Source of the DNA: Erysipelotrichaceae bacterium
Lineage (GTDB): Bacteria; Bacillota_I; Bacilli_A; RFN20; CAG-826
Length of the DNA stretch: 64,000 bases
Assembly: GCA_015059185.1 (NCBI GenBank)
Contig: SVAY01000006.1
Location: 14,070-78,069 of the forward strand
Reading direction: 5' to 3'
Made by a program: the position numbers and the translations under genes
Notes under the pieces: generated by a model
Database searches by the model: none
What the model was told of the DNA's origin: nothing
The model's input: only the letters and a program-made list of their open reading frames with translations
In this document: piece by piece, positions 1,652 through 55,695 of the stretch
How positions within the stretch are numbered: the first letter of the stretch is position 1
Layout of the letters: each line of letters opens with the position of its first letter

Positions 1652-3295
1652 TTAGATGAATTTAGAGATATCAACTTCATTAGTGTCAATCTTTGATATT
1701 CTTTCTCTTAAAGCCAAGGTATAGGCTGGAGAGACACTTAATTCATCGATACCAATTTTCACGAAGAACGGTAATAATTCCTCATCTCTAGCAAGTTCAC
1801 CACATATACCAACAGGGATACCCGCTTTATGAGCATTTTCACAAATGATATTAATTAATCTCGTCACCGAACGATGACGCGGATTAAACTGTGCAGTAAG
1901 ATTTGGATTCACTCTATCAAGCGCTAAAGTGTACTGCGTTAAATCATTTGTGCCAATAGAGAAGAAGTCAACTTCTCTAGCAAAGATATCGCTAAGAATA
2001 GCGGCACTAGGAGTTTCAACCATAATACCAATCTTCACATCTTCTTTGTAAAGAAGGCCACGCGCTTTAAGATTGTCTCTCGCTTGTTTAGCCATTTCTT
2101 TAATAAAGTTAATCTCACTTAACGAAATAATCATCGGGACCATAATCGCTAAGTTCCCATAATATGAAGCGCGGTATAGTGCTTGAAGTTGTGTTAAGAA
2201 AATTTGAGGACGCGCTTTACAAATACGAATACTTCTAAAACCAAGCGCTGGATTATCTTCTTCTGGAAGATCAAAGTAATCAATCTTCTTATCTGCTCCA
2301 ATATCTAATGTACGAATAATAACTTGACGAGGCGCCATCGCTTCAACAACGCGTTTATAATGTTCAAATTGTTCTTCTTCCGAAGGATAAGTTGAGTTAT
2401 CTAAATAGATGAATTCACTACGGAAGAGGCCAATACCTTCACTATCATTTTTAATCGCATTTTCTACTTCAAAAGAAGAGGCTATATTGGAATAGATTTC
2501 TAATTTCTTTCCATCTTTAGAAATAGTTGGTTTTCCTTTAAAAGCCTGCAATTTAAGCTTATTTTCTTCATATTGATTCTTAAGTTTTGCATAATCAGTC
2601 ACAATATGAGATTCTGGACCAATTAATAGTTGGGCTTTGTTTGCGTCTAAAATCGCATACTCCCCTTCAAGTTCCTTAGTGACTTCAAAACCATCAATTC
2701 CACAGATAGAAGGAATTTCAAGCATTCTTGTTAAAATCGAGACGTGAGAATTTGTGCCACCTTTTACGAACACAATTCCCAAAATGAGTTTGCGATCAAT
2801 CTTCATAAGCTCACTACTTGGAAGATCATCACAAATGATAATGCTTGGTTCTTTTATAATAAAACCACTACTATCTTTTTTAAGGAAAGAGATGATACGA
2901 GAGCTAACTTCTCTAACGTCATTTGCTCTTTCTTTCATATAAGCATCATCCATTGATGCAAACATATCTGCGAGTTGAGCACCAGCACTTTGGGTCGCAA
3001 ATTCTGCAGTAACGTTATTTTCTAATTCAGCTTTAACCGCGTCTTCGAAATCTAGATCCTCAGCCATCAGCTTATGGGTCTCAAATAACGCTGCTTCTTT
3101 TTCACCAAGCTTTGCCAAAGTCTCCATAAAAGAGGCATCCAACGCTTGTACTGTTTCACTACGTGCTTTTTTAAATCTTTCGAATTCTTTTTCTGGGCCT
3201 AAACCAAAACTTTTTTCGACTTTTTCCTGTTTGTAAACAGCAAGCTTACCTAATGCATAGCCTTCAAATACTCGGCTTCCTTGATAAGTCTTCAT
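1652..3295 (-). CDS. ptsI: PTS enzyme I (phosphoenolpyruvate-protein phosphotransferase)
   Basis: 547 aa, PEP-utilising enzyme family sequence throughout. Confidence 0.9.
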   Translation of the reverse strand: MKTYQGSRVFEGYALGKLAVYKQEKVEKSFGLGPEKEFERFKKARSETVQALDASFMETLAKLGEKEAALFETHKLMAEDLDFEDAVKAELENNVTAEFATQSAGAQLADMFASMDDAYMKERANDVREVSSRIISFLKKDSSGFIIKEPSIIICDDLPSSELMKIDRKLILGIVFVKGGTNSHVSILTRMLEIPSICGIDGFEVTKELEGEYAILDANKAQLLIGPESHIVTDYAKLKNQYEENKLKLQAFKGKPTISKDGKKLEIYSNIASSFEVENAIKNDSEGIGLFRSEFIYLDNSTYPSEEEQFEHYKRVVEAMAPRQVIIRTLDIGADKKIDYFDLPEEDNPALGFRSIRICKARPQIFLTQLQALYRASYYGNLAIMVPMIISLSEINFIKEMAKQARDNLKARGLLYKEDVKIGIMVETPSAAILSDIFAREVDFFSIGTNDLTQYTLALDRVNPNLTAQFNPRHRSVTRLINIICENAHKAGIPVGICGELARDEELLPFFVKIGIDELSVSPAYTLALRERISKIDTNEVDISKFI

Positions 3296-3298
3296 TGT

Positions 3299-3556
3299 TT
3301 ATAAATTTTCCTTAAATATTTTTTCAACAGCGGCTGCTCCGTCTTCTTCGTCAGCCCCTTCAACTTTAATAACTACTTCTTCACCGCATTTAACACATAA
3401 AGACATAACACCGAAGATTCTTTTTAAATCGGCGCTTTTGCCTTTATTTTCAATGGTGAAGTTAGAAGAGTATTTCTTTGCTTCAGCAACAACAACACCG
3501 GCTGGACGTGCATGAATACCTTCTTTGTCAGTAATAACATAACTAAATTGTTTCAT
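3299..3556 (-). CDS. ptsH: phosphocarrier protein HPr
   Basis: 85 aa, His15 context GIHARPA and Ser46 region typical of HPr. Confidence 0.9.
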   Translation of the reverse strand: MKQFSYVITDKEGIHARPAGVVVAEAKKYSSNFTIENKGKSADLKRIFGVMSLCVKCGEEVVIKVEGADEEDGAAAVEKIFKENL

Positions 3557-3614
3557 ATAATGATTCTCCTATATTATTTATCCTAGAGCCCACAAGGGCC
3601 CTAGGAATAAAATA

Positions 3615-5609
3615 TTATTTCTTTTTGAAAAGCTTTTTGATATTAATACCTTTCCATTTACCAAGTTCAGGATTATCGTTATCCTTCTTTAAGATGCCAA
3701 GAAGTATAGCGGTAACAAATGAACCTGCAACAATGGCTAGTAGATAAAGTGGAATAGCCCAACCTGGTTGAATGGTACCTAAAACGAATATACCGCCATG
3801 AGGTGCCAATAATTGACATTGGAATAATCCTGTTAATAAACCAGCGACAAGTGAACCACCGGCACAGCTAACAATAACTCTCCATGGGTCAGCAGCAGCG
3901 AATGGAATAGCGCCTTCAGTGATAAATGAGGCACCCATAACATAATTCACCATCGCATCTCCTCTTTGAGTTTTTGAATATTTTTGAGGGAATAAGTTAG
4001 CACTTAAGGCGATACCAAGAGGTGGCACCATACCACCTGCCATAACAGCAGCCATCATGATATAAGCTTCTGGAGTTTGTGTAGATAAGCTTCCAGCAGC
4101 GAAGACATAAGCAGCTTTATTAATAGGACCACCCATATCGGTTGCCATCATGGTCGCAAGAAGCGCACAAGTGATAACTAATAAGGCAGGTTGTTGACCC
4201 ATATATGTTAATAAGTTATTGAATCCAATATTGACGTAGATTAATGGCGTATTGATGAGATACATTGATCCGCCAATTAAAATCATACCTAAGATTGGAT
4301 AGATAAGCATTGGTTTAAGAGCATCTAATGATTTTGGTAATTTCTTAAACAACCTTCCTAATCCTAGAACAATGTATCCAGCAAGGAAGCCGGCAACAAT
4401 GCCTCCTAAGAACCCTGCATTAGAGCCTTTATCAACGCCCTCAATCGCGTATTGAATATTAAATGTTGAAGTAGTAGCAATAAACCCACCGACCATACCA
4501 ACAGCAAGACCAGGACGACCCGCAATTGAGAAGGCAATGAACCCTGCTAAAATCCATACCATGAAGTTAAAGCCATAACCACCGATAGTTTTAAACCAAG
4601 CAGCAACAGCATTAACACTACCGAAGTTAGGATCTCCAGCATTTCCAGCGATGGTATCAATTAAGAATGCGATAGCAATTAAGATACCTCCACCAATAAC
4701 GAATGGTAACATGTGGCTAACACCACTCATTAAGTGTTTATATATTTGGTGAGCAACTGATCCTTTTTCCCCTTCTTCCTTACTAGCTTCACCACTAGCT
4801 TTATATTTTGGAGTTTCTGGATCAAGCGCTTTATTAATAAGTTTTTCTGGTTCGTGGATACCCTTAGCAACTTTTGCTTGTACAACACGTTTACCGTTAA
4901 ACCTATTCATCTCGACATTGACATCAGCGGCAACGACAATGCCTTCTGCGTGTTCAATTTCCTCTTTGGTAAGTTTATTTTTAATTCCACCAGAGCCATT
5001 AGTTTCAACTTTAATCGATATGCCCATTTCTTTCGCTTTATCTTTCAAAGCTTGTTCAGCCATATAAGTATGAGCAATGCCGGTAGGACAGCCAGTAACA
5101 GCTAAGACACGTGGATAACCACTATCGGCTTCTACTTTTTCTTCTTCAAGTTTTTCGCCTTCGGCTTCATCAATTACTTTTAAGAATGCTTTTGCGTTTT
5201 TAGCTTTTAAGAGTTTATTCTTAAATTCATCATTCATAAGCATTTCACTTAATCTCGCTAATACGTCTAAATGAACATTATCTTCACTATTTGGGGCTGC
5301 GATTAAGAATAATAAGTGCACAGGTTCACCGTCTAAAGAAGCATAGTCAACACCTTCCGGGATGACCATTGCTGCTAAAGCAGGTTTATTAACAACTGAG
5401 CTTTTACAGTGAGGAATAGCAATTCCTTCCCCAATACCTGTTGTTGATTCTTCTTCTCTTTTAAAAACACCATTCTCATAGACTGAAACATCATCAATCG
5501 CGCCTGAATTGGCAATAAGAGAGACAGCTTGTTTAATCACATCAGCTTTAGAATCAGCTTTTGCACCAATCAATACTGTTTTTTCTGATAATAAATCAGT
5601 AATTCTCAT
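3615..5609 (-). CDS. fruA: PTS fructose-specific IIABC component
   Basis: 664 aa with an N-terminal IIA(Fru) domain, a IIB domain with Cys (VTGCPTGIAHT) and a multi-TM IIC domain; RBS GAAAGGAG. Confidence 0.85.
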   Translation of the reverse strand: MRITDLLSEKTVLIGAKADSKADVIKQAVSLIANSGAIDDVSVYENGVFKREEESTTGIGEGIAIPHCKSSVVNKPALAAMVIPEGVDYASLDGEPVHLLFLIAAPNSEDNVHLDVLARLSEMLMNDEFKNKLLKAKNAKAFLKVIDEAEGEKLEEEKVEADSGYPRVLAVTGCPTGIAHTYMAEQALKDKAKEMGISIKVETNGSGGIKNKLTKEEIEHAEGIVVAADVNVEMNRFNGKRVVQAKVAKGIHEPEKLINKALDPETPKYKASGEASKEEGEKGSVAHQIYKHLMSGVSHMLPFVIGGGILIAIAFLIDTIAGNAGDPNFGSVNAVAAWFKTIGGYGFNFMVWILAGFIAFSIAGRPGLAVGMVGGFIATTSTFNIQYAIEGVDKGSNAGFLGGIVAGFLAGYIVLGLGRLFKKLPKSLDALKPMLIYPILGMILIGGSMYLINTPLIYVNIGFNNLLTYMGQQPALLVITCALLATMMATDMGGPINKAAYVFAAGSLSTQTPEAYIMMAAVMAGGMVPPLGIALSANLFPQKYSKTQRGDAMVNYVMGASFITEGAIPFAAADPWRVIVSCAGGSLVAGLLTGLFQCQLLAPHGGIFVLGTIQPGWAIPLYLLAIVAGSFVTAILLGILKKDNDNPELGKWKGINIKKLFKKK

Positions 5610-5629: not shown

Positions 5630-6532
5630 TTAATCCATTTTGTTTAACAAGTTAGTTACTTCTTCTTTAGTGGCTAAATATTCACTAAAAGCGGAAGCAC
5701 TACCTGTCGCAATGCCTTGTTTAAAGGCTTTTTTAATATCTTTTGAATCAAGATATTCGGCAATAAATCCTGCCACAAGAGAATCTCCTGCTCCTACAGT
5801 ATTTACGACCTTTCCTTGTGGGGCGCTTCTTTTAACAGACTCTAAGCCTTCCCCGACGAGTAAAGCACCATCTCCCCCTAAAGAAACAATGACATTTCTT
5901 GCTCCTAACGATAGAAGCTTAGAAGCATTTTCAATTAATTCTTGATCGTTAGAAATTGAGACGTTAAACATTTCTTCAAGCTCTTCTTTATTAGGTTTCA
6001 CTAGAAGCGGGCGATACTTTAAAGTGTTGAGTAAAATATCTTTAGTCGCATCAACGATAACTTCTACTTTGTTATCTTTAATACGTTCTAAAATCATCTC
6101 ATAAATATTTGAAGGCAAAGATTTAGGAACTGTTCCAGATATCACTAAAAGATCATCTTTAGTTAATTTCTCTAATTGAGAAATTAATTTATTAATATCT
6201 TCATCTTTAATATTAGGGCCTTGACCATTAATCGCTGTTTCTTTTCCAGCACGGATTTTCACATTAATTCGGGTAAGCCCATCTACTTCAATAAAACCAG
6301 ATTTGATATTTCTTTTGGCAAGTTCTTCTTTAATGAATGCACCAGTAAAACCACCTAAAAAGCCTGTAGCAATACTACTCTTTCCTAGGTTAGCTAAAAC
6401 TAGTGATACATTAATTCCCTTCCCACCCGGAAAAACTTGCTCTTGTTGAGTACGATTAATGTCGCCAATAGTAAAATTAGCTAAATCAACTACATAATCA
6501 ATAGCGGGTGAAAAGGTAACAGTATAAATCAT
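5630..6532 (-). CDS. fruK: 1-phosphofructokinase (PfkB family)
   Basis: 300 aa PfkB ribokinase-fold with GAGDS motif; lies first in the operon before fruA; RBS GGAGG. Confidence 0.85.
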   Translation of the reverse strand: MIYTVTFSPAIDYVVDLANFTIGDINRTQQEQVFPGGKGINVSLVLANLGKSSIATGFLGGFTGAFIKEELAKRNIKSGFIEVDGLTRINVKIRAGKETAINGQGPNIKDEDINKLISQLEKLTKDDLLVISGTVPKSLPSNIYEMILERIKDNKVEVIVDATKDILLNTLKYRPLLVKPNKEELEEMFNVSISNDQELIENASKLLSLGARNVIVSLGGDGALLVGEGLESVKRSAPQGKVVNTVGAGDSLVAGFIAEYLDSKDIKKAFKQGIATGSASAFSEYLATKEEVTNLLNKMD

Positions 6533-12676: not shown

Positions 12677-14287
<1,611 letters not shown>

Positions 14288-16066
14288 TTACTCCACGGTC
14301 ACACTTTTAGCAAGGTTTCGTGGTTTATCAACATTTAGACCTTTAGAAATTGAAACATAATATGCTAGATAAAAAGCAACGATAGAGACTGCAACACTAG
14401 AAAGATAATAAGCATAATCCTTCACAATAATCGTATCCTCTTTTCTAGAAAGCTTTTGGGTAGCGATAGTATAAACAGTTGCGCCGCGTGCTTTCACTTC
14501 TTCAATATTTCCTCTCATGCTAGAAGCAGTAACTGTGTCGGTAATAAAAACGATAACTGGTGTTCCTGGTTCAATTAACGCGATTGGGCCATGTTTAAGT
14601 TCTCCTCCAGGAATAGCTTCCGAATGGATATAACTAACTTCTTTTAGTTTTAAAGATGCTTCAAGTGATAAGAAATAGTCATAACTTCTACCTAAATAGA
14701 AGATGTTAGTTTTGTCTTTTAATTCATCTGCAACATTCATAATGATTGGCTTATAGTTATCCCTAATATCTTTAACAATTTCAATAGAGTCTTTTAGATC
14801 TTTTATTGTTTTCTTATCGTTTTGAAGCGCACTTGAAAGAAGTGAAAGCAAAGTCACCTGAGCAACATATGCTTTTGTAGAAGCAACTGATACTTCAATA
14901 CCTGCATGCAACAAAAGCGAATACATTGCATTTCTATCTAAAGTAGACCCACCAGTATTAGTGATAATTAAATTCTTAAGATTATGTTCTTTAATGATTT
15001 TTAGGCAGTGAATTAAGTCCGCCGTTTCTCCCGATTGAGAAATCATAATAATGAACGGTCTTTCTCCTGGATAAGTAGGATGGAAGGCCCATTCAGACGC
15101 AATAAATCTACTTGCAGATTTCCCATAGTATTCAAAAAATCTTCCACCTACTAATCCTGAGTGATAAGAAGTTCCACAAGCAATAAAAATGATATGATCA
15201 GATTCGTTTAAATCTTTGATAAGGTGGGGATCAAACTGGTATTCATCATTTTTAAAATATTCATTAATCAAGTTATTAACAACAGAAGGTATTTCTTCAA
15301 TTTCCTTAAGCATATAATGTGGATAACCTTTTAGGTCATGAGATATAGTCTCAATATCTTTATGTATCTTTTCTTTATTGACCTTCTCCCCTTCTTGGTC
15401 ATAAACCTCAACTGAATCATTAGAAATAACTGTATATTCGTTATCTTCAAGTTCGATAAAGTTATTGGTCAAACTAATCATCGGAGAAGCGTCACTTGCA
15501 ATTAAGTTATATCCTTCGCCGAGTCCAATAACTAAAGGTGAAGACTTTTTTAAAGCATATAAAACATTTTCATCATCACTCGTAAAGAAGGTGATTGCAA
15601 AACTACCCTTAAGCAATGACATCACTTTTCTAATTGCACTGATGACATCGTAATCTTTTAAATAGAAGTATTCTAATAAGTTAGAAGCAATTTCTGAATC
15701 AGTTTCACCAACAAATTCGTAGCCTTTATCCACTAAAAATTCTTTTAATTCCTTATAATTTTCAATTACGCCATTATGGACTAAACAGATTTTTTTACGA
15801 AAAGAAAGATGAGGATGGGTATTGTTGATACTGGGAACACCATGTGTTGCCCAGCGGGTATGTCCAATCATCACATTTGTTTCTATGTGGCTAGGAACAA
15901 AAGAGAATAGGTGTTCGACACTACCTACGTCTTTATAGATTTTAATGCCATCACTAAGATAAGCAATACCAGCGGAATCATATCCACGGTAATCTAAAAT
16001 CTTTAAGCCTTTTTCGACATAATTACGAGGATCTTTTAATCCAATTGAGCCAACAATTCCACACAT
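14288..16066 (-). CDS. glmS: glutamine--fructose-6-phosphate aminotransferase
   Basis: Starts MCGIVG, has two SIS domains and ends KSVTVE, as GlmS does. Confidence 0.85.
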   Translation of the reverse strand: MCGIVGSIGLKDPRNYVEKGLKILDYRGYDSAGIAYLSDGIKIYKDVGSVEHLFSFVPSHIETNVMIGHTRWATHGVPSINNTHPHLSFRKKICLVHNGVIENYKELKEFLVDKGYEFVGETDSEIASNLLEYFYLKDYDVISAIRKVMSLLKGSFAITFFTSDDENVLYALKKSSPLVIGLGEGYNLIASDASPMISLTNNFIELEDNEYTVISNDSVEVYDQEGEKVNKEKIHKDIETISHDLKGYPHYMLKEIEEIPSVVNNLINEYFKNDEYQFDPHLIKDLNESDHIIFIACGTSYHSGLVGGRFFEYYGKSASRFIASEWAFHPTYPGERPFIIMISQSGETADLIHCLKIIKEHNLKNLIITNTGGSTLDRNAMYSLLLHAGIEVSVASTKAYVAQVTLLSLLSSALQNDKKTIKDLKDSIEIVKDIRDNYKPIIMNVADELKDKTNIFYLGRSYDYFLSLEASLKLKEVSYIHSEAIPGGELKHGPIALIEPGTPVIVFITDTVTASSMRGNIEEVKARGATVYTIATQKLSRKEDTIIVKDYAYYLSSVAVSIVAFYLAYYVSISKGLNVDKPRNLAKSVTVE

Positions 16067-16067
16067 A

Positions 16068-17402
16068 CTATCTTCCTAAATATTTCTTAAGTTCGTATTC
16101 ACTAACAGTCGTGTGATATTCCTTCCACTCTTTTTCCTTTGCTTCGATATATTTAGGGAAGAGATGATCACCTAAGACTTCCTTAAGAATTGCACTATTC
16201 CTAAAATCCTTAATCGCAGAATGAAGGGTTGCTGGTAAACATACAATATTACGCGCTTCAATTTCTTCCTCGCTTAGGGCAAAGAGGTTATCGCTGACAG
16301 GGGGAATGATATCGCTGTCTTTAGTTTTTTCGATACCCTCTAAGCCACAAGCTAGGATGCCAGCAAGTGCTAAATATGGATTCGCACAAGGGTCAACATT
16401 TCTTAATTCTGTTCTTGTGGCTAAACCTCTAATAGCAGGAATACGAATGAGCGAACTTCTATTCGCATCACTCCAACATGCGTAGATAGGGGCTTCATAG
16501 CCACTGACAAGTCTTTTATATGAATTAACAATTGGGTTAGTTAATAAACTTAATTCACGAGCGTGACTTAGTATTCCTGTAATCCACTTCTTACATAATA
16601 AGGATAATTCCATCTCACAATTTGGATCATAGAATAAATCACCTTTATCTTTAGAATATAATGAGCAGTTTGTGTGCATGCCGTTACCAGCAAGTTTATT
16701 AAGTGGTTTAGGCATGAAGGAAGCTAGGTAGCCATTCTTTCTAGCGACCATTTTCACAACTTGTTTAAATGTTTGGACACGGTCACAAGCACTGACTACA
16801 TCGATATATTTAAAAGTTATTTCATTTTGGCCTGGACCGACTTCATGGTGAGACGCTTGGACATTAAAGCCCATCTTCTCAAGCATTAAAGCAATTTCTC
16901 TACGGATATTTTCTCCTCCATCAAATGGTGAGAGGTCAAAGTAAGAGGCACTATCACTTAAGGCAGTAGAAGGATTACCATCTTTATCAAGTTTAAAGAG
17001 ATAGAACTCAGGTTCAAAACCAACGTACATGGTTTCAATACCCATCTTATTCATCTTCTCGACCTGTCTTTTTAAGATATAACGAGGATCACCTAAGAAC
17101 GGTTTACCTTCTGGAGTGTAGCAATCACAAATGAATCTAGCGACTCCTCCAACCGAACTATCTTCAAATGGAAGAACTAAGAATGTACCAATATCTGGTC
17201 TAAGATACATATCTGCTTCTTTAATACGGACAAAGCCTTCAATTGAGGATCCATCAAACATAATCTTGTTATTTAATACATCGTCAAGTTTACTTACTGG
17301 TACTTCTACCGCTTTAATATCACCAAGCATATCGGTAAATTGTAGTCTTAAGTATGAAATGTTGTTTTCTTTAATTATTCTTCTGATATCATTTGCGTCC
17401 AT
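16068..17402 (-). CDS. glnA: glutamine synthetase type I
   Basis: GlnA family sequence; start taken at ATG 17402 (MDANDIRR) because AAAGGAG sits 10 nt upstream (the track ORF begins at an upstream TTG). Confidence 0.85.
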   Translation of the reverse strand: MDANDIRRIIKENNISYLRLQFTDMLGDIKAVEVPVSKLDDVLNNKIMFDGSSIEGFVRIKEADMYLRPDIGTFLVLPFEDSSVGGVARFICDCYTPEGKPFLGDPRYILKRQVEKMNKMGIETMYVGFEPEFYLFKLDKDGNPSTALSDSASYFDLSPFDGGENIRREIALMLEKMGFNVQASHHEVGPGQNEITFKYIDVVSACDRVQTFKQVVKMVARKNGYLASFMPKPLNKLAGNGMHTNCSLYSKDKGDLFYDPNCEMELSLLCKKWITGILSHARELSLLTNPIVNSYKRLVSGYEAPIYACWSDANRSSLIRIPAIRGLATRTELRNVDPCANPYLALAGILACGLEGIEKTKDSDIIPPVSDNLFALSEEEIEARNIVCLPATLHSAIKDFRNSAILKEVLGDHLFPKYIEAKEKEWKEYHTTVSEYELKKYLGR

Positions 17403-17557
17403 AATTATAATGCTCCTTTTCAAATATCAATGTAGTTATGTTAGTCGGTTGTCAACAACATTTGAAATACTTATAATATTGTGATTATCATATTTTTTAC
17501 ATATGATAGAAAAAAAGAGGTTAATTCACCCCTTAATGTAAAGTTTTATTTACAAAT

Positions 17558-18439
17558 CTATTCTTTGATAATTGCTTTAATGTGATCAATAAATGCTTCG
17601 TCTAATAACGATAATGGTTTATCTTTAAGCCAGACAAAGAGATATTCAACATATCTTTCTGGATTCACTATTTCTTTAGCAATGATTTGATCATTTAAAA
17701 TATAGGAAGTTTTTGGGAATATACTAATACCAATGTTCCTTCCTGCTAGGGCAGCAACATCTAGATAATTATCCATACGACACACAATATGTGGTTCCGC
17801 GTGTATTTCCTTAAACCATTTATAAATCATTGTATTCATTGCAACTCTACTAGGAATAATTAATGGTTTATCCTTTAACATTGATAAATCAATAGTGTCA
17901 CCTTGAATAGTAGCAAGAGGATTATCTTTACTCATAAATGCTGTCATCTTTTCTTGTCCAACTTTAAAACTATTTAGTAATGTATTGTCACATGGAGAGG
18001 TGATAACAGCCATATCAATAAGTCCACTTCTTAGTTTTTGGATTAATTCGTCGCTATTGCCATCAACCACATGGAATTCAACATTTTTATATTGGCTAAC
18101 AAATCTTTCAATCCAATCAGCGGCAATGATAGGTGCTGACCCTTCCACTAAACCAATTGCTATCTTTCCTCTCATCCCTTTGTCCATAGCTCTAATTTCT
18201 TCTTTAGTTTTATTGACAAGAGACAAAATCTCTTTTGCGTGACGATAAAGAAGTTTGCCTGAGTCAGTTAATTGTAATCGCCTTTTTCCTCTAATAAATA
18301 AAACCGTATCAAGTTCATCTTCTAGCGCTTTCATTTGACTACTTAAAGGAGGCTGACTCATACAAAGTTTCTCTGCTGCTTTTGTGATGTTGAGTTCTTC
18401 TGCGATTGTCACGAAGTAAGATAATGTGCGAATATCCAT
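17558..18439 (-). CDS. LysR-family transcriptional regulator
   Basis: N-terminal HTH (LNITKAAEKLCMSQPPLS) and a LysR substrate-binding domain; divergent from the amt fusion gene. Confidence 0.8.
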   Translation of the reverse strand: MDIRTLSYFVTIAEELNITKAAEKLCMSQPPLSSQMKALEDELDTVLFIRGKRRLQLTDSGKLLYRHAKEILSLVNKTKEEIRAMDKGMRGKIAIGLVEGSAPIIAADWIERFVSQYKNVEFHVVDGNSDELIQKLRSGLIDMAVITSPCDNTLLNSFKVGQEKMTAFMSKDNPLATIQGDTIDLSMLKDKPLIIPSRVAMNTMIYKWFKEIHAEPHIVCRMDNYLDVAALAGRNIGISIFPKTSYILNDQIIAKEIVNPERYVEYLFVWLKDKPLSLLDEAFIDHIKAIIKE

Positions 18440-18562
18440 AACTATTTACCTATCATACGAAATTTATATTGTTACCATAATATTATACGTATTTGATTAA
18501 TATAATTCAAAATTTTAAAATCCCCTCATATGAACTAGTTATTGTTCAGTGGAGGAAAAGTT

Positions 18563-20281
18563 ATGACAATAGAATTCTGGTATTTAATTGGTGCTGCATT
18601 AGTGTTCTTCATGCAAGCAGGCTTTGCAATGGTTGAGACCGGTTTTACGAGAGCAAAAAATGCTGGCAATATCATCATGAAGAACTTGATGGATTTCTGT
18701 ATTGGCACAATCGTCTTCATGTTATTAGGATTTGGTCTTATGATGGGTGAAGATACGCTATTTGGGCTTATCGGTATTCCTAACTTAGATTTATTCACTA
18801 AATTTGCATCATTTATTGAAAGCCCAGCAGATGGTTTTACCGCTGCTTCGACATTTGTGTTTAACCTTGTCTTCTGTGCTACTGCAGCAACTATTGTTTC
18901 TGGTTCAATGGCAGAAAGAACAAGGTTCTTATCTTACTGTATTTATTCCGCAATTATCTCTTTAATCATATACCCAATTGAAGCGCACTGGATTTGGGGT
19001 GGAGGTTGGTTAGCCTCTATCGGTTTTCATGATTACGCTGGCAGCACTGCCATTCATATGGTTGGCGGTATCGCTGCTTTAATTGGAGCAATTTTTCTTG
19101 GTCCACGTATTGGTAAATATGAAAGGGACGAGAATGGAAAAGTTATTAAAGTTAATGCTATTCAAGGTCACTCTATACCTTTAGGTGCCTTGGGTGCATT
19201 TATCTTGTGGTTTGGTTGGTATGGTTTCAATGGTGCTGCTGCCACGACCACAAGCGAATTAGCTACTATTTTCTTGAACACAACTATTGCACCAGCAGTT
19301 GCTACAGTAACTACTATGGTTTTTACATGGATTAAAAACGGTAAGCCTGATGTCTCTATGTGTATCAATGCCTGCCTAGCAGGTTTAGTTGGCGTTACTG
19401 CTGGATGCGCAGCTTTTGACGCCATTGGTTCCACTGTTGTTGGTTTGGTCTCTGGTTTCCTAGTCGTCTTTGTGGTTGAGTTTCTTGATCTTAAGTTACA
19501 TATTGATGATCCAGTCGGTGCGGTTGGTGTTCATATGGCAAACGGTATTTGGGGCACACTTGCAGTTGGCTTATTAGCAAACCCAAATGCTCCAGCAGGT
19601 TTAAACGGCCTCTTCTATACTGGTAATTTCTATCAATTAGGAGTACAAGCTTTAGGTTTTATTTCAGTCGCAACCTATACCGCTATATTTATGACCTTAA
19701 CATTCTTCATTATTAAAAAGACTGTTGGTTTACGCGTTAATAAAGAAGAAGAAATTAAAGGTCTTGATAGTACTGAACATGGCTTAACGAATGCTTATGC
19801 TGATTTTGCAATTGCAGCGAATGCTTATGCTGATTATATTGCCGCCGAACCTGTCATTATTACTGGAGAAGCACCCGTTGCGGAAGCTGTTCCAGTTAAG
19901 AAAAATAAAACATCTTCTAACGGTGTGAAGTTCACTAAAGTAGAGATTATATTCAAAGAAGAAAGACTATATGCTTTAAAAACTGCTATGAGCAAAATTG
20001 GCATTATGGGTATGACGGTGTCACACGTTATGGGTTTTGGTCAACAACAAGGCAAACCTGAATATTATCGTGGTGTTCAAGTTGAAGCGGACTTATTACC
20101 AAAGGTACAAGTCGATATCGTTGTATCTAAGATTCCAGTTAGAACCGTTATCGAAACAGCAAAGAAAGTTCTATATACCGGCAATATCGGTGATGGCAAA
20201 ATCTTTGTTTATGATGTTGAAAATGTCGTCAAGGTAAGAACCGGCGAAGAGGGTTATGATGCTTTGCAAGATGTTGAATGA
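18563..20281 (+). CDS. amt: ammonium transporter (Amt) fused in-frame to a C-terminal P-II (GlnB/GlnK-like) domain
   Basis: The Amt core runs to about residue 410; an Ala/Tyr-rich repeat linker follows; the last ~112 aa align to P-II (GMTVSHVMGFGQQQG...GDGKIFVYDV...RTGEEG); start at ATG 18563 after GGAGGAAAAG. Confidence 0.8.
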   Translation: MTIEFWYLIGAALVFFMQAGFAMVETGFTRAKNAGNIIMKNLMDFCIGTIVFMLLGFGLMMGEDTLFGLIGIPNLDLFTKFASFIESPADGFTAASTFVFNLVFCATAATIVSGSMAERTRFLSYCIYSAIISLIIYPIEAHWIWGGGWLASIGFHDYAGSTAIHMVGGIAALIGAIFLGPRIGKYERDENGKVIKVNAIQGHSIPLGALGAFILWFGWYGFNGAAATTTSELATIFLNTTIAPAVATVTTMVFTWIKNGKPDVSMCINACLAGLVGVTAGCAAFDAIGSTVVGLVSGFLVVFVVEFLDLKLHIDDPVGAVGVHMANGIWGTLAVGLLANPNAPAGLNGLFYTGNFYQLGVQALGFISVATYTAIFMTLTFFIIKKTVGLRVNKEEEIKGLDSTEHGLTNAYADFAIAANAYADYIAAEPVIITGEAPVAEAVPVKKNKTSSNGVKFTKVEIIFKEERLYALKTAMSKIGIMGMTVSHVMGFGQQQGKPEYYRGVQVEADLLPKVQVDIVVSKIPVRTVIETAKKVLYTGNIGDGKIFVYDVENVVKVRTGEEGYDALQDVE

Positions 20282-20492
20282 TTAGTTACGATATTAGATA
20301 TTGAGTTTTTTTTGTGATAATCAAAAGGCTATAAAAATACTACTCTATTCTTATCATATAAATTTCGTATGATTATACAAATATTATACATATTTGATTT
20401 TATAGATATAAATTCATACAATTGCCCTGTGATTGAATGAATCAGGTTTTAGTAAATGGTTCATTTATTCATCCTTAACGAAGGAGAATACT

Positions 20493-21767
20493 ATGAGAAA
20501 CTGTGCGATTGTGGGCATTAACTGGGGAGATGAAGGAAAAGGAAGAATTGTTGACCTTTTATGTTCATCATATGATTACGTTGTTCGTTATCAAGGTGGC
20601 GGCAATGCTGGCCATACTGTTGTGAATGATAAAGGTAAATTTGCTCTTCACCTAATTCCTTCTGGAATATTTCATGAAGGCGTCATAAATATCTTAGGAA
20701 ACGGGGTTGCTCTTGATCCTGAAAGCCTTTATGAAGAAATTGTATTTCTCAGAAGTAAAGGGATAGAGGTAAGCCCCGCTAATCTTAAAATCAGTGATCG
20801 TGCTTCTATCTTATTCCCTTGGCATAAAGAGTTGGATGCTTTAGAAGAAGAAAGACTTAAAGATAAAAAATATGGCTCTACTAAACAAGGCATAGCTCCT
20901 TTTTATAGTAATAAATATCAAAAGAAAACTATTTTAATGGGAGAGTTATTGTACTCATCTAATCTTGATGAACATATCAAAGATATCCTTGAATGGAAAA
21001 ACCTTATATTAAAAGGCGTATATAACGCTGAACCTATTTCTTTTGAAGATATCAAGAAATGGGTAGAGGATATGAAAGAAAAAATTGGCCCATTCATTTG
21101 TGATACAACAAAATTATTAATGAACGCTGTGTATGAAAACAAAAGTATACTTTTTGAAGCTCAACTTGGTTCATTAAGAGATCTTGATTATGGTATTTAT
21201 CCCTACACCACTTCTAGCAATACTCTAGCCTCCTATATCCCAATAGGATCAGGCTTACCAACAGCGAAAATTGAAGAGATTCTTGGCGTAGTAAAAGCTT
21301 ATTCTACCTGCGTTGGTGAAGGTCCGTTTGTGAGTGAATGGAAAGGTGAAGATGCTGATAAACTTCGTGAAGCAGGCATGGAATATGGAGCAAAAACTGG
21401 TCGCCCTAGAAGAGTAGGACCAATTGATATCGTTGCAACAAAGTATGGAGTAGAGGTCCAAAACGCCACTTCAATCGCCTTAACTAAGTTAGATGTTCTT
21501 TCTTATATGGATAAGATTCCAGTCTGTGTTAAATATAAACTTCATGGTGAAGAAATCGACCATTTTCCATTCCCGTCTTTACTTGAGGAATGTGAACCTG
21601 TTATCGAATATCTCGACGGCTGGAAAGAAGATATTTCTAAAATAAGAAAATGGGAAGAGTTACCAAATAATGCTAGAGTATATGTAGAGTTTATAGAAAA
21701 GCAGATTAATTGTCACATCAAGTATGTTTCGGTTGGACAAGAAAGAAATGCTTATATAGAAAGGTAA
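20493..21767 (+). CDS. purA: adenylosuccinate synthetase
   Basis: GDEGKGR P-loop and QGG(G)NAGHT motifs; start at MRNCAIV after AAGGAGA. Confidence 0.85.
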   Translation: MRNCAIVGINWGDEGKGRIVDLLCSSYDYVVRYQGGGNAGHTVVNDKGKFALHLIPSGIFHEGVINILGNGVALDPESLYEEIVFLRSKGIEVSPANLKISDRASILFPWHKELDALEEERLKDKKYGSTKQGIAPFYSNKYQKKTILMGELLYSSNLDEHIKDILEWKNLILKGVYNAEPISFEDIKKWVEDMKEKIGPFICDTTKLLMNAVYENKSILFEAQLGSLRDLDYGIYPYTTSSNTLASYIPIGSGLPTAKIEEILGVVKAYSTCVGEGPFVSEWKGEDADKLREAGMEYGAKTGRPRRVGPIDIVATKYGVEVQNATSIALTKLDVLSYMDKIPVCVKYKLHGEEIDHFPFPSLLEECEPVIEYLDGWKEDISKIRKWEELPNNARVYVEFIEKQINCHIKYVSVGQERNAYIER

Positions 21768-21770
21768 TTT

Positions 21771-23201
21771 ATGAACCAGAACGATAAATATATGAGTCCC
21801 TTCTCAGAAAGATATGCTTCCAAAGAAATGCAATATCTATTTTCCGCAAACAAAAAGTATTCAACCTGGAGAAGACTATGGGTTGCTTTAGCAGAAGCAG
21901 AAAAAGAGTTAGGCATAAAACAAATTACTGATGAAATGATCAAAGAGATGAAAAGTCATATTGAAGACATTGATTATGAGCTAGCTAATAAATACGAAGA
22001 AAAACTTCGTCATGATGTTATGGCCCATATCCACGCTTATGGTGATCAATGCCCTACCGCAAAAGGAATAATACATCTCGGTGCAACTAGTTGCTATGTT
22101 GGTGATAACGCCGATATCATCATTATGAAAGAAGCATTATTACTACTTAAAAAGAAACTAGTTAATCTAATTAATAATCTCGCCAACTTTGCTCTTAAAT
22201 ATAAAGACGTCCCCACTTTGGCCTATACACATTTTCAAGCTGCTCAACCCACTACTGTAGGAAAAAGAGCCTCGTTATGGTTGCATGATTTTATTATTGA
22301 CCTCGAAGATTTAGAATATGTAGCTAACTCTCTTAAATTATTGGGCAATAAAGGCACTACTGGTACCCAAGCTTCTTTTGTAGAACTATTTAACGATAAA
22401 GAAGCTCCTATCAAATTAGATAAGTTAATCGCTAATAAAATGGGATTTAAAGATACTTACCCAGTGTCTGGGCAAACATATACTAGGAAAATTGATTGTC
22501 GTATATATAACGTATTAGCTTCAATCGCCACTTCAGCGAGCAAAATGGCAAATGACATTCGTTTATTGCAACACGAAAAAGAAATAGAAGAACCATTTGA
22601 ATCAAGTCAAGTTGGTTCTAGTGCAATGCCTTATAAACGTAACCCTATGCGTTCAGAAAGAATTACCTCTATAGCAAGATATGTCATAAGCAATATGAAT
22701 AATCCTTATATTACTGCTTCTTCTCAGTGGCTTGAAAGAACTCTAGATGACTCCGCTAATCGAAGGATTGTATTAAGCGAAGGATTTTTAGGAGCGGATG
22801 GCATCTTAGATTTATGTATAAATATCACTGAAGGACTTGTTGTTAATCAAAAAGTGATTGAAAAGAACCTTAAAGAAGAACTTCCTTTTATGATTACCGA
22901 GAACATTTTGATGGACCAAGTAAAAGAAGGTGGAAACCGCCAAGAACTTCATGAAGAAATAAGGAAGCTTTCTATGGAAGCTAGTAAAAGGGTGAAGGAA
23001 GAAGGATTAGATAACGATTTATATTCAAGAATCCTTGCTTCAAATAAGTTTAAAATTTCAAATGATAAAGACTATTTAAATCCAAATAAATATATAGGAT
23101 TAGCAAATGAACAAGTAACCTCATTTATAAATGCAATAGTTAATCCTATTTTAGAAAAAAATAAAGATTTGCTTGGAATTAAAGTAAAAATCAATAAATA
23201 G
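21771..23201 (+). CDS. purB: adenylosuccinate lyase
   Basis: 476 aa fumarate-lyase family protein with purB-type termini; immediately follows purA. Confidence 0.8.
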
Positions 23202-23209
23202 GTGGAGTT

Positions 23210-24742
23210 ATGGATAAGATATTAGTTTTAGATTTTGGAGGGCAATATAACCAACTAATTGCTCGTCGAGTACGTTCGCTTTCAGTTTTTGCCGAAATTA
23301 AAAACTATGATTGTATAACTAGTGAAGAAATAAAGAATAACGATTATAAAGGAATTATTTTTACAGGTGGTCCTAATAGTGTATATGATCCATCTTCACC
23401 TCATTATTCAAAAGATATCTTAGAATTAGGTATTCCAATCCTAGGAATATGTTATGGTGATCAACTTCTCGCTTATATGAATGGGGCCACTATCACTAGC
23501 GCTAAACATAATAGTGAATATGGCAAGACAACCCTTATCTCTTTGGGTGGAACCATCTTAAAGGGAGTACCAGAAAAAAGCGTCTGTTGGATGAGCCATA
23601 CTGATTATATTAAAGAAGCGCCAAGTGGCTTTAAAACCACTGGTTATACAAATAATTGTCCATGCGCCGTCATGGAGAATAATGAAAAGAAATTTTATGG
23701 CGTGCAATTCCATCCAGAAGTTACTCATACAGAATACGGAATGACGATATTATCAAATTTCGTTTTTGATGTGTGTGAATGTAAAGCTGATTGGAAGATG
23801 GACAACTTTGCTAAAGCTTCAATAGAAAAATATAGAAATGAATTAAAAGATAAAAAGGTTTTATTGGCGCTTTCTGGTGGTCTTGATTCTTCTGTTGTTG
23901 CACTTCTACTTAATAAAGCAATAGGAAAAAACCTTATCTGTGTATTTGTTGATCATGGCTTATTAAGAAAAGATGAAGGAGACTATGTTGAAAAGGTCTT
24001 TAAAGATACATTTGATATTAACCTCATTAGGGTAAACGCAAAAGCGAGGTTCTTAAATGCCCTAAAAGGAGTAACAGATCCAGAAACAAAACGTAAGATT
24101 ATTGGAAAAGAATTTATTGAAGTCTTTACCGAAGAAGCAAAGAAGATTGGGAATATCGATATACTATCACAAGGCACCATTTATCCAGATGTCATTGAAA
24201 GCGGTAGAAACGCCTCAGCAGTCATTAAAAGCCATCATAACGTTGGGGGATTACCAAAAGATATTGGCTTCAAAGGAATAGTTGAACCTTTAAGGGATCT
24301 TTTTAAAGATGAAGTAAGAAAAATTGGTATTGAACTAGGGCTCCCGTTAGAATTAGTTTACCGTCAACCATTCCCTGGACCTGGACTAGCGGTAAGAATT
24401 ATAGGCGAGATTACAGAAGAAAAAATTAAAATTGCTCAAGATAGCGACGCGATACTGAGGGAAGAATTCTTAAAAGCAGGTTTAGATAAAAAAGCAAACC
24501 AATATTTTACCGTTGTTACCAACACACACTCAGTTGGAGTTATGGGTGACGCTAGAACATATGGTTATACCCTTGCTATTAGAGCGGTGACAACCGATGA
24601 CTTTATGACGGCTACATGGACAAGGATTCCTTTTGATACATTAGAGACTATCAGTTCACGAATCACCAATGAAGTCAAAGGCATAAACCGTGTGACATAC
24701 GATATCACAAGCAAACCACCTGCTACTGTTGAATGGGAATAA
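23210..24742 (+). CDS. guaA: GMP synthase (glutamine-hydrolysing), full length
   Basis: N-terminal GATase (GICYGDQ; HPE), ATP-PPase SGGxDSS motif and C-terminal ...TVEWE. Confidence 0.9.
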
Positions 24743-24743
24743 T

Positions 24744-25391
24744 ATGAAAAAACACATTGTTATTCAACTTGTGATTGCTTTCTTATTTACCTTTATGGGT
24801 GGATACTGTGATGGGTATACCTATTTAACAAGAAATGGGATATTTAGTCATATGCAAACAGGCAACCTTATCAAATTTTGTATCGCCCTAGCAAATGGAT
24901 ATTTTGAATATCCTTTATTAATACCTATTATCTTTTTCTGTTTAGGATGCATAGCTGCAACTTTTATTGGAAAACTCAAATATTGTACCTATATCACCAC
25001 TATTACTTTAACAATAACATTTTTCGCTTGTAGCTTTTGTCCCTTAGAAAAAACATGGAACATTGTTGCTGTCTCTATATTATCTTTTGTTGCTGCTTTA
25101 CAGTTCCAAGCATTTAATAGATGCCTTAATTACCACTATACTTCAACCATGTGCACGAATAATATGCGTTTATTATCAAATAACATTGCGCATGGAAATT
25201 TGAAGAAGGTTGCTTTTTATTTTTCAATTATATTATGCTTTGCTCTTGGTGTAGTTGCTTCTACGTTCGTCGTAAAAGCAATGGACTTTTATGCTCTTGC
25301 TCCAAGCGCTTTAATCTTTATTGTTATACTAGTTTTATTATTTGTTGATAAAAACGAAATCAAAATAGATGATGAAGAAATAAACGACTAA
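24744..25391 (+). CDS. DUF1275 / YoaK-family membrane protein
   Basis: Hydrophobic 216-aa protein with YoaK-like N-terminal pattern (GGYCDGYTYL); weak RBS. Confidence 0.5.
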   Translation: MKKHIVIQLVIAFLFTFMGGYCDGYTYLTRNGIFSHMQTGNLIKFCIALANGYFEYPLLIPIIFFCLGCIAATFIGKLKYCTYITTITLTITFFACSFCPLEKTWNIVAVSILSFVAALQFQAFNRCLNYHYTSTMCTNNMRLLSNNIAHGNLKKVAFYFSIILCFALGVVASTFVVKAMDFYALAPSALIFIVILVLLFVDKNEIKIDDEEIND

Positions 25392-55130: not shown

Positions 55131-55646
55131 CTACTTATATAAGATAAATTTTCTTGTGAAATAATTCCATACTAAGCCAACTAATGTTCTTAAACAGAAG
55201 GAGACAAAGTAGGCCCAAAACGCTGCATCTCCCCAGAAGGTAAATGTAAATACTCTTTTAATAATAACATCAACATTTTCATCAATATTAATATTCCACG
55301 CGTTGCGGCACACTAAAGAGCATAATTCCATCGTTCCAACCGATAACCCCCACGCAACTGCACTTAAGACTACAAAAGCAATAATAAAACCTATAGTCTT
55401 AGTTTTATCCTTATTAGATACATTTTTAAAGACCCAGAAGGTACTGAGTAAGTAATTTATCGTGACTCCAACAATAAATCCCGCTGTCGTTGATATTGCA
55501 GTAGCCCAAAAGCCTGTCATACCAGCCTTATTTAAAAGAGCTAGAACCCCATAACTAGTTAAAAAATCTAATAAAGCGCATACCACACCTGTGACAATGA
55601 ATCTAAATAATTCATTACCAGTCGAAATCTTCTCACTTTTTTCCAT
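55131..55646 (-). CDS. GtrA-family membrane protein
   Basis: 171 aa, four TM helices, GtrA-like sequence. Confidence 0.6.
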   Translation of the reverse strand: MEKSEKISTGNELFRFIVTGVVCALLDFLTSYGVLALLNKAGMTGFWATAISTTAGFIVGVTINYLLSTFWVFKNVSNKDKTKTIGFIIAFVVLSAVAWGLSVGTMELCSLVCRNAWNINIDENVDVIIKRVFTFTFWGDAAFWAYFVSFCLRTLVGLVWNYFTRKFILYK

Positions 55647-55695
55647 TAATGAGATTATACATTTTTATTCATCAAATATGAATAATATTAATTAT

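Follow-up and report, generated by a model that had tools for sequence, protein, structure and literature searches.

In this study, we analysed a gene that encodes an ammonium channel of the Amt family and a P-II regulator of the GlnK type as one polypeptide. The gene lies in a stretch of 64,000 nucleotides (nt) from an Erysipelotrichaceae bacterium (GenBank assembly GCA_015059185.1, contig SVAY01000006.1, positions 14,070 to 78,069 of the forward strand), which we refer to as the window and whose positions are used throughout. Between 18563 and 20281 on the forward strand, one open frame of 572 codons runs from an ATG at 18563 to a TGA at 20279-20281 without a stop codon or frameshift. An initial annotation, made from the sequence alone, had described a single open reading frame (ORF) of 573 amino acids (aa); the single frame stands, but the length does not, as the product has 572 aa and the figure of 573 includes the stop. 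The same frame extends back to a TTG at 18542, and the ATG at 18563 is the start used by the 572-aa homologues in the databases. The gene and its parts are as follows.

18551..18555, forward strand: ribosome-binding site GGAGG, 7 nt 5' of the ATG, read from the sequence
18563..20281, forward strand: coding sequence of the Amt-P-II fusion, 572 aa plus TGA
18578..19789, forward strand: Amt ammonium channel domain, residues 6-409 (Pfam, NCBIfam, alignment to AmtB, AlphaFold2 (AF2), Foldseek)
19745..19783, forward strand: cytoplasmic C-terminal region of Amt, EEEIKGLDSTEHG, residues 395-407 (alignment; conserved in fusions)
19790..19930, forward strand: inter-domain linker, residues 410-456 (~47 aa), predicted disordered (AF2 local confidence)
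19790..19837, forward strand: duplicated Amt tail, NAYADF (residues 410-415) and NAYADY (residues 420-425), a 30-nt tandem duplication
19880..19903, forward strand: linker motif AEAVPVKK, residues 440-447 (conservation of A-[VI]-P-[VI])
19931..20266, forward strand: P-II (GlnK-like) domain, residues 457-568 (Pfam, alignment to 4rx6, AF2 secondary structure)
20033..20089, forward strand: T-loop, residues 491-509, equivalent to GlnB 35-53 (alignment), GFGQQQGKPEYYRGVQVEA
20177..20254, forward strand: B-loop TGNIGDGKIF (residues 539-548) and C-terminal RTGEEG (residues 559-564), nucleotide binding by alignment

Both halves of the protein are recognized by the profiles of their families. Residues 6-409 match the Pfam model Ammonium_transp (PF00909) with E = 3e-121 and 405 bits, against a cut-off of 23, over profile positions 2-397 of 399, and residues 458-562 match P-II (PF00543) with E = 7e-23 and 81.4 bits, against a cut-off of 25, over positions 2-102 of 102. 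These scores, far above the Pfam cut-offs, bear out the earlier claim of a complete Amt domain followed by a full P-II domain, including for the C-terminal domain, for which a profile search had been asked for. The peptide strings on which that claim was based are likewise all present, namely NAYADFAIAANAYADYIAAEP at residues 410-430, GFGQQQGKPEYYRGVQVEA at 491-509, TGNIGDGKIF at 539-548 and RTGEEG at 559-564. The fusion protein also passes the NCBIfam model TIGR00836 ('amt') with 429.6 bits against a cut-off of 343.3, and the P-II domain stays below the cut-offs of the E. coli-specific equivalog models NF008111 and NF007946, as expected of a distant orthologue.

Structure prediction gives the same architecture. 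The AF2 model of the fusion monomer (mean predicted local distance difference test (pLDDT) score 81, predicted template modelling (TM) score 0.75) consists of an Amt helical bundle, in which most residues have a pLDDT of ~85-98, and a P-II domain with the canonical beta-alpha-beta-beta-alpha-beta fold, joined by a linker in which residues 414-453 fall below 50. Foldseek TM-scores normalised to the target were 0.94 to Af-Amt1 and 0.88-0.91 to the E. coli AmtB chains of 2ns1_A and 2nuu. Among the solved structures searched by sequence and with Foldseek, no chain spans both domains. In the Pfam analysis, the Amt domain is followed by P-II only, with no enzymatic transducer (histidine kinase or HAMP-GGDEF) after it.

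The fused architecture recurs widely. The identical 572-aa protein has been deposited as MBE6141767.1 ('ammonium transporter [Erysipelotrichaceae bacterium]', from a metagenome-assembled genome), and JGI/IMG and Logan assemblies contain the identical sequence as well, within a cluster of 138 members at 90% identity. PF00543 and PF00909 occur together in all 120 of the best 120 protein clusters (81-98% identity, 552-593 aa) and in 120/120 of the clusters listed from a second search, in which the divergent fusion P0153 served as the query; the latter include Anaerocolumna, Caproicibacterium and Ruminococcus bicirculans. At 50% identity, both domains are present in 34 of the best 150 representatives, and full-length fusions extend down to ~37-38% identity. 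A genome scan with one genome per GTDB species yielded at least 599 stretches encoding a relative, from which 80 loci were kept for inspection, and every one of these 80 species loci has one stop-free ORF across both domains. The kept loci come from Lachnospiraceae, Oscillospiraceae, Ruminococcus flavefaciens, Butyrivibrio, Agathobacter, [Lactobacillus] rogosae, Monoglobus, Treponema and a few bins labelled Bacteroidales. Because the frame is fused in all of these loci and both domains are present in all of the listed clusters, the data imply purifying selection on the fused state. In a rough neighbour-joining tree of Amt domains, 59 of 62 fusions fall into a single clade, with 6 unfused proteins inside it and 3 fused proteins outside, which suggests one main, old fusion event, the tree being too rough for counting events. 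The same fusion is thus present in related genomes, as the initial annotation had proposed to check. Its statement that amtB and glnK are normally separate holds for model organisms but not generally, as the fused form is frequent among anaerobes of gut and rumen, with Clostridia, Erysipelotrichaceae and some Treponema as carriers, and is annotated publicly.

The linker carries traces of its origin. It is 42-65 aa long in 101 homologues (median ~51-52) and opens with x-S/N-A-Y-A-D/G-F, the natural C-terminal tail of Amt; E. coli AmtB ends ...HGENAYNA. In the window protein, this tail is duplicated, with an exact 16-nt repeat (AATGCTTATGCTGATT) at 19790 and again at 19820, 30 nt apart. The first tail copy aligns with the C-terminus of E. 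coli AmtB, and the second is found only in relatives of at least ~82% identity. The duplication accounts for the 'Ala/Tyr-rich repeat' described earlier; the repeat is real, but the linker is not merely of low complexity, as it opens with the Amt tail and carries its duplication. Farther along the linker is a short conserved motif, A-[VI]-P-[VI]; of 144 linkers, 67 have it, compared with 2.3 in shuffled linkers, and 119 have a relaxed form. It sits 13-26 residues before the first P-II residue and is retained even where lineages share just 35-60% identity with the window protein and the remaining linker is unalignable; AF2 gives AEAVPVKK no structure. At the position of the P-II initiator methionine (Met1), many (Lachnospiraceae-type) fusions still have Met, and the window protein has Phe457 (TTC). 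In Firmicutes, the gene order is amt followed by glnK. The Amt-then-P-II order of the fusion matches this gene order, and with the retained Amt tail and Met1 it fits an origin of the fusion from two neighbouring genes whose separating stop codon was lost.

In the Amt domain, the pore residues are kept (E. coli AmtB numbering = numbering here: Phe gate F107 = F104 and F215 = F222, W148 = W145, D160 = D157, and twin histidines H168 = H165 and H318 = H324). In the cytoplasmic C-terminal region, E397, G400, L401, D402 and H406 do not vary among 60 fusions. The homologues at the 50%-identity level also include many Amt-domain proteins of 700-2800 aa. Several of these (P0146, P0149, P0164, P0167, P0172, P0177, P0181 and others, 900-2800 aa) have an Amt part 34-39% identical to the window protein and match the query in two stretches; the large proteins are presumably Amt modules fused to big signalling proteins, that is, sensor Amts.

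Alignment of the P-II part with E. coli GlnB (1pil), Aquifex GlnB (2eg1) and B. subtilis GlnK (4rx6) needs no gap, the 19-residue T-loop included, and makes GlnB residue n equivalent to window residue n+456. The best solved match is B. subtilis GlnK, that is, NrgB, with which an alignment had been suggested (4rx6, E = 9e-31). Linkage to amt, by which GlnK is told from GlnB, is present here within one ORF. The plug arginine R47 is retained as R503, and the Y46-R47-G48 tip of the T-loop is invariant in 101/101 aligned fusions. The residues for ATP, ADP and 2-oxoglutarate (G37, Q39, K58, G87, D88, G89, K90 and R103) are all present and are invariant, or nearly so, in the same 101 fusions.

The T-loop of the window protein has no modifiable residue. 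Val507 (GTT, 20081-20083) occupies the site of Tyr51 uridylylation or adenylylation, and Val505 stands at the position of Ala/Ser49, where Ser49 phosphorylation would occur. Modifiable T-loop residues define only the proteobacterial, actinobacterial and cyanobacterial P-II subtypes. By every family feature that we tested, the protein is both an Amt and a P-II protein, lacking only this subtype-specific modification site. Position 51 is V, M, I or L in the 101 aligned fusions and the same in a divergent set, and Tyr was found in none of the ~160 fusions examined. The ungapped alignment to 1pil and 4rx6 confirms the Val that the initial annotation had placed at position 51 of the T-loop. Its expectation that GlnD-type modification would not occur, as befits a Firmicute, agrees with V507 and with the absence of any reported P-II modification in Firmicutes or archaea (Merrick 2015 review, PMC4285133). 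Because B. subtilis GlnK has Ile51 in the alignment, and because no such modification has been reported in the phylum, the absence of Tyr51 is the normal state of Firmicutes and not a consequence of the fusion. The earlier description of Tyr51 as 'replaced' is therefore correct as to the replacement itself, but not as a trait specific to fusions.

The genes around the fusions point to nitrogen assimilation. In 82 related loci, the neighbours include type III glutamine synthetase (GS) in 43 (usually directly upstream on the same strand), glutamate synthase (GOGAT) in 20, asparagine synthetase (AsnB) in 19 and type I GS (GS-I) in 12. In none of the kept loci is a free P-II gene found within 6 kb of the fusion, and the window contains no other Amt or P-II gene. 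Such a neighbourhood is what an assimilatory transporter would be expected to have.

Taken together, these results support a model in which the gene encodes an assimilatory Amt channel with a covalently tethered, effector-gated GlnK plug, to which we assign a probability of roughly 0.7. The model draws on the identities of the two domains, the conserved ligand, plug and pore residues, the conservation of the fusion and its nitrogen-assimilation context. We favour it because all of the residues required by the AmtB-GlnK model are conserved; by homology with the E. coli and B. subtilis AmtB-GlnK systems, we infer that the protein forms trimers, plugs its own pore and is controlled by effectors. 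Amt and GlnK are both homotrimers, and the GlnK trimer docks on AmtB at 1:1, with R47 of each T-loop inserted into a pore exit (2NS1, 2NUU). Since both partners are homotrimers, the product would be a 3+3 assembly with three tethers. Its P-II domain would sense the nitrogen, carbon and energy state through Mg-ATP and 2-oxoglutarate, or through ADP. When nitrogen is sufficient, with 2-oxoglutarate low and ADP bound, the T-loops would extend and R503 would enter each cytoplasmic pore exit, closing the pore. When nitrogen is limited, Mg-ATP and 2-oxoglutarate would keep the T-loops in a non-plugging state, and the P-II body would undock while staying tethered. Covalent modification of the T-loop would play no part; association and dissociation of GlnK and AmtB can follow ATP, ADP and 2-oxoglutarate without modification (PMC4274968). 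The tether would ensure a high local concentration, may allow fast shut-off and would bar this P-II domain from free signalling in the cytoplasm. A 1:1 stoichiometry and a membrane location, both put forward in the initial annotation, follow directly from the fusion.

Several observations weigh against this model. S219 of E. coli AmtB is Ala226 here, the sole pore or selectivity residue that differs in the alignment to AmtB, and the equivalent of R101 in the P-II domain is Lys in the window protein and in most fusions. The nearest solved Amts by sequence are the non-transporting sensors Ks-Amt5 (6eu6, E = 1.5e-77, 38% identity) and Sd-Amt1, ahead of Af-Amt1 and AmtB, and of the three helix-I positions by which Ks-Amt5 is occluded, two hold Phe in the window protein (F21 and F28). 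The conserved A-V-P-V motif of the linker has no role in a tethered plug. The AF2 run was of a monomer, with no confident docking geometry between Amt and P-II and with the linker unmodelled. In the literature, we found no experimental datum on any Amt-P-II fusion.

The best-characterized point of comparison is the E. coli AmtB-GlnK complex (2NS1, 2NUU), which joins the same two families at 1:1; the window protein keeps its pore residues, its T-loop tip, its residues for ATP/ADP and 2-oxoglutarate and its C-terminal Amt region, including the ...HG.NAY tail. The E. coli system differs in that it consists of two diffusible proteins encoded in the order glnK-amtB, whereas the window protein is one polypeptide with a linker of ~47 residues in the order Amt-P-II. 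Furthermore, the identity of the Amt domains is only ~27-30%, the equivalent of S219 is Ala, and Val507 in place of Tyr51 makes GlnD-type uridylylation impossible. The B. subtilis pair AmtB/GlnK (NrgA/NrgB; 4RX6, 4R25) is similar in other respects, as it includes the closest solved P-II protein, a non-Tyr residue at position 51 (Ile), Val49 and the amt-then-glnK order, and comes from a Firmicute with no known P-II modification. In B. subtilis, however, the genes and proteins are separate and GlnK is free to leave the membrane, which the P-II domain of the window protein cannot do. Identical PF00909 plus PF00543 architecture is found in the known fusions Clo1313_2260 of C. thermocellum, WP_275846397.1 of Caproicibacterium and MBE6141767.1, which are annotated only as 'ammonium transporter'.

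It is possible, although in our view rather unlikely, that the fusion is more than a passive tether, with A-[VI]-P-[VI] and the duplicated tail forming a second regulated contact that sets the equilibrium between docked and undocked states, and with the locus perhaps under an undescribed nitrogen regulator of the LysR type. Such a contact could occupy the lateral cleft of P-II or loop 5 of the neighbouring Amt subunit. If this were true, the protein would be mechanistically distinct from the known systems, a self-contained channel gated by 2-oxoglutarate and ATP.

An alternative that we consider improbable is that the protein is an ammonium receptor (transceptor), in which Amt binds ammonium without conducting it and signals to the fused P-II domain as an output module, by analogy with Ks-Amt5 (6EU6) and Sd-Amt1 (8QJ3, 8QJ4). 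Amt proteins with signalling domains fused to the C-terminus are well established, and these two proteins, to which the Amt part is closest in sequence among PDB entries, are likewise Amt trimers with a C-terminal cytoplasmic signalling domain. In helix I, F21 and F28 match the bulky F27 and F34 of Ks-Amt5. However, the occluding triad of Ks-Amt5 (F27/Y30/F34) is only partly matched by F21/V24/F28: the middle residue, Val24, is less bulky than its counterparts Y30 in Ks-Amt5 and F26 in the transporter Af-Amt1, whose aligned residues are V23/F26/M30. The sensors also carry a histidine kinase (Ks-Amt5) or HAMP-GGDEF (Sd-Amt1) rather than P-II, and their Amt modules have lost transport. In the window protein, by contrast, every transport motif is intact and the TIGR00836 transporter cut-off is passed, the window offers no other Amt gene to carry out transport, and fusion genes sit in GS, GOGAT and AsnB assimilation clusters. 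Firmicute Amts are unsampled in the PDB, so the closeness to sensors may only mirror which structures have been solved.

Equally doubtful is a function of the tethered P-II domain mainly as a scaffold that recruits other nitrogen proteins, such as a transcription factor or GS, in an effector-dependent manner, with plugging secondary. B. subtilis GlnK sits on AmtB at the membrane and binds TnrA. This precedent is pertinent, given that B. subtilis GlnK is the closest solved P-II protein and that GS genes are the commonest neighbours of the fusions. Nonetheless, no TnrA- or GlnR-type gene was seen adjoining the fusion and the local regulator is of the LysR type, and the invariant Y46-R47-G48 tip is the signature of a plug. 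Scaffolding would, moreover, be additive to a tethered plug and not exclusive of it.

It is also quite improbable that the fusion is a precursor or hidden bicistron, releasing free GlnK for classical diffusible regulation through proteolysis of the linker (perhaps at A-V-P-V) or through internal initiation. The long disordered linker, its short conserved motif at a fixed distance from P-II and the Met at the Met1 position of many Lachnospiraceae-type fusions would all be compatible with such a release. In the window protein, however, the Met1 position is Phe457 (TTC), and the only nearby start-type codon, GTG455, has no Shine-Dalgarno sequence. Nor, if free GlnK were the goal, would selection be expected to maintain an uninterrupted frame in hundreds of species, since the ancestral arrangement of two genes is trivially available.

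Finally, an assembly or sequencing artefact that hides a true stop codon between amt and glnK, which the initial annotation had raised as a check and for which the sole point is the a priori one that the genes are separate in model organisms, is excluded by the recurrence of the exact sequence in NCBI, JGI/IMG and Logan, by the stop-free frame in 80/80 loci and by the two-domain architecture of 240/240 listed clusters, and the ~47-residue linker is much longer than the intergenic gap expected of an amtB-glnK operon.

Considering the tethered plug in light of prior work, we conclude that the fusion is real, was correctly interpreted in the initial annotation, is ordinary in its lineage and has an architecture that is already known. 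Marsh et al. 2013 counted AmtB-GlnK (2NS1) as one of the 'prefusion' complexes, the subunits of which occur as fusions in some genomes, and pointed out that fusion would not preserve the disassembly pathway of AmtB-GlnK (PMC4009401). The Amt-P-II fusion is also mentioned by Sander et al. Passing mentions of this kind are all that our literature search turned up; it yielded no work on the function or structure of Amt-GlnK or Amt-PII fusions, and an earlier explicit description may exist. The discovery value is small, as the architecture is in databases with Pfam annotation, the exact protein has been deposited and the fusion has already been mentioned in print. Still, a natural single-chain AmtB-GlnK may provide structural biology with a stoichiometric, non-dissociating complex. 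Such a complex could help to trap the plugged and unplugged states and thus to probe how ATP, ADP and 2-oxoglutarate drive the T-loop without modification. Given how abundant the fusion is among the Clostridia, Erysipelotrichaceae and Treponema of the rumen and gut, ammonium uptake in these ecosystems is predicted to be largely under the fused design.

The regulation of the locus is perhaps its less explored part, as the window contains a candidate LysR-type regulon that includes the fusion gene. The divergent LysR-type gene reported upstream in the initial annotation is present, and beyond it lie glnA (type I GS, TIGR00653, 476 bits against a cut-off of 429) and glmS; downstream of the fusion are purA, purB and guaA (20433-24742, forward strand). 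The regulatory features are as follows.

17461-17507, reverse strand (reading from 17507 to 17461): two-box element upstream of glnA, the same as that at 18452 (sequence match)
17558..18439, reverse strand: divergent LysR-type regulator, 293 aa, candidate regulator of the locus (ORF, NCBIfam)
18452..18498, forward strand: operator-like two-box element in the lysR/amt-PII intergenic region, with palindrome-like ATCATACGAAATTTATATTGT, 6 nt and AATATTATACGTATTTGATT, the latter overlapping the -35
18493..18521, forward strand: sigma-70-like promoter candidate TTGATT-17 nt-TAAAAT (consensus scan only, 9/12 matches)
20353-20399, forward strand: the same two-box element upstream of purA(-purB-guaA) (sequence match)
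20394-20422, forward strand: promoter candidate of the same geometry at purA (consensus scan)

The best NCBIfam matches of the LysR gene (AlsR, CidR and GltC) are all far under their cut-offs. A LysR neighbour is found in 1 of the 82 related loci, namely that of the 89%-identical relative L081. Nitrogen-consuming amidotransferase and aspartate-using enzymes abound in the cluster, which appears to share its regulation with ammonium uptake; in the relatives L081 and L082, pyrG, purC or asnB are added to it.

The shared element has the form ATCATA-N9-TATGAT, N6, AATATTATA(C/A)(G/A)TATTT, and its spacing to a -35/-10 candidate is identical at all three promoters, with the second box overlapping the TTGATT -35. 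Its 20-mer occurs three times in the window, compared with 0.12 expected. In the 89%-identical relative, the arms of the operator are conserved and the spacer varies. Because the two-box geometry is LysR-like and the LysR gene lies amid these promoters, the layout suggests a recognition site followed by an activation site of the LysR type, and hence a putative nitrogen and purine regulon of this gene. An operator common to the glnA, amt-PII and purA-purB-guaA promoters may replace control of the GlnR/TnrA type in this Erysipelotrichaceae lineage. An Rfam scan of positions 14000-25000 gave no match at E <= 1, and thus no known glutamine riboswitch or leader, and the stretch from the fusion to purA showed no intrinsic terminator.

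A partial copy of the operator 20-mer with 2 mismatches (55670-55689, reverse strand) lacks the palindrome box and was rejected as probably a promoter look-alike; it lies between the gene of a GGDEF/EAL-like membrane protein (55696-57858) and that of a small membrane protein (55131-55646). In the 85%-identical relative L082, which is without the LysR gene, the leaders of GS type III and amt-PII contain repeated GC-rich hairpin-like units (3290-3770 and 5860-6005 of that locus), for example GGCAA(C/A)GGCGTCTTTTGTG...AAAGGCGC. These units may be antiterminator targets of the ANTAR type, implying a different regulatory solution for the same gene.

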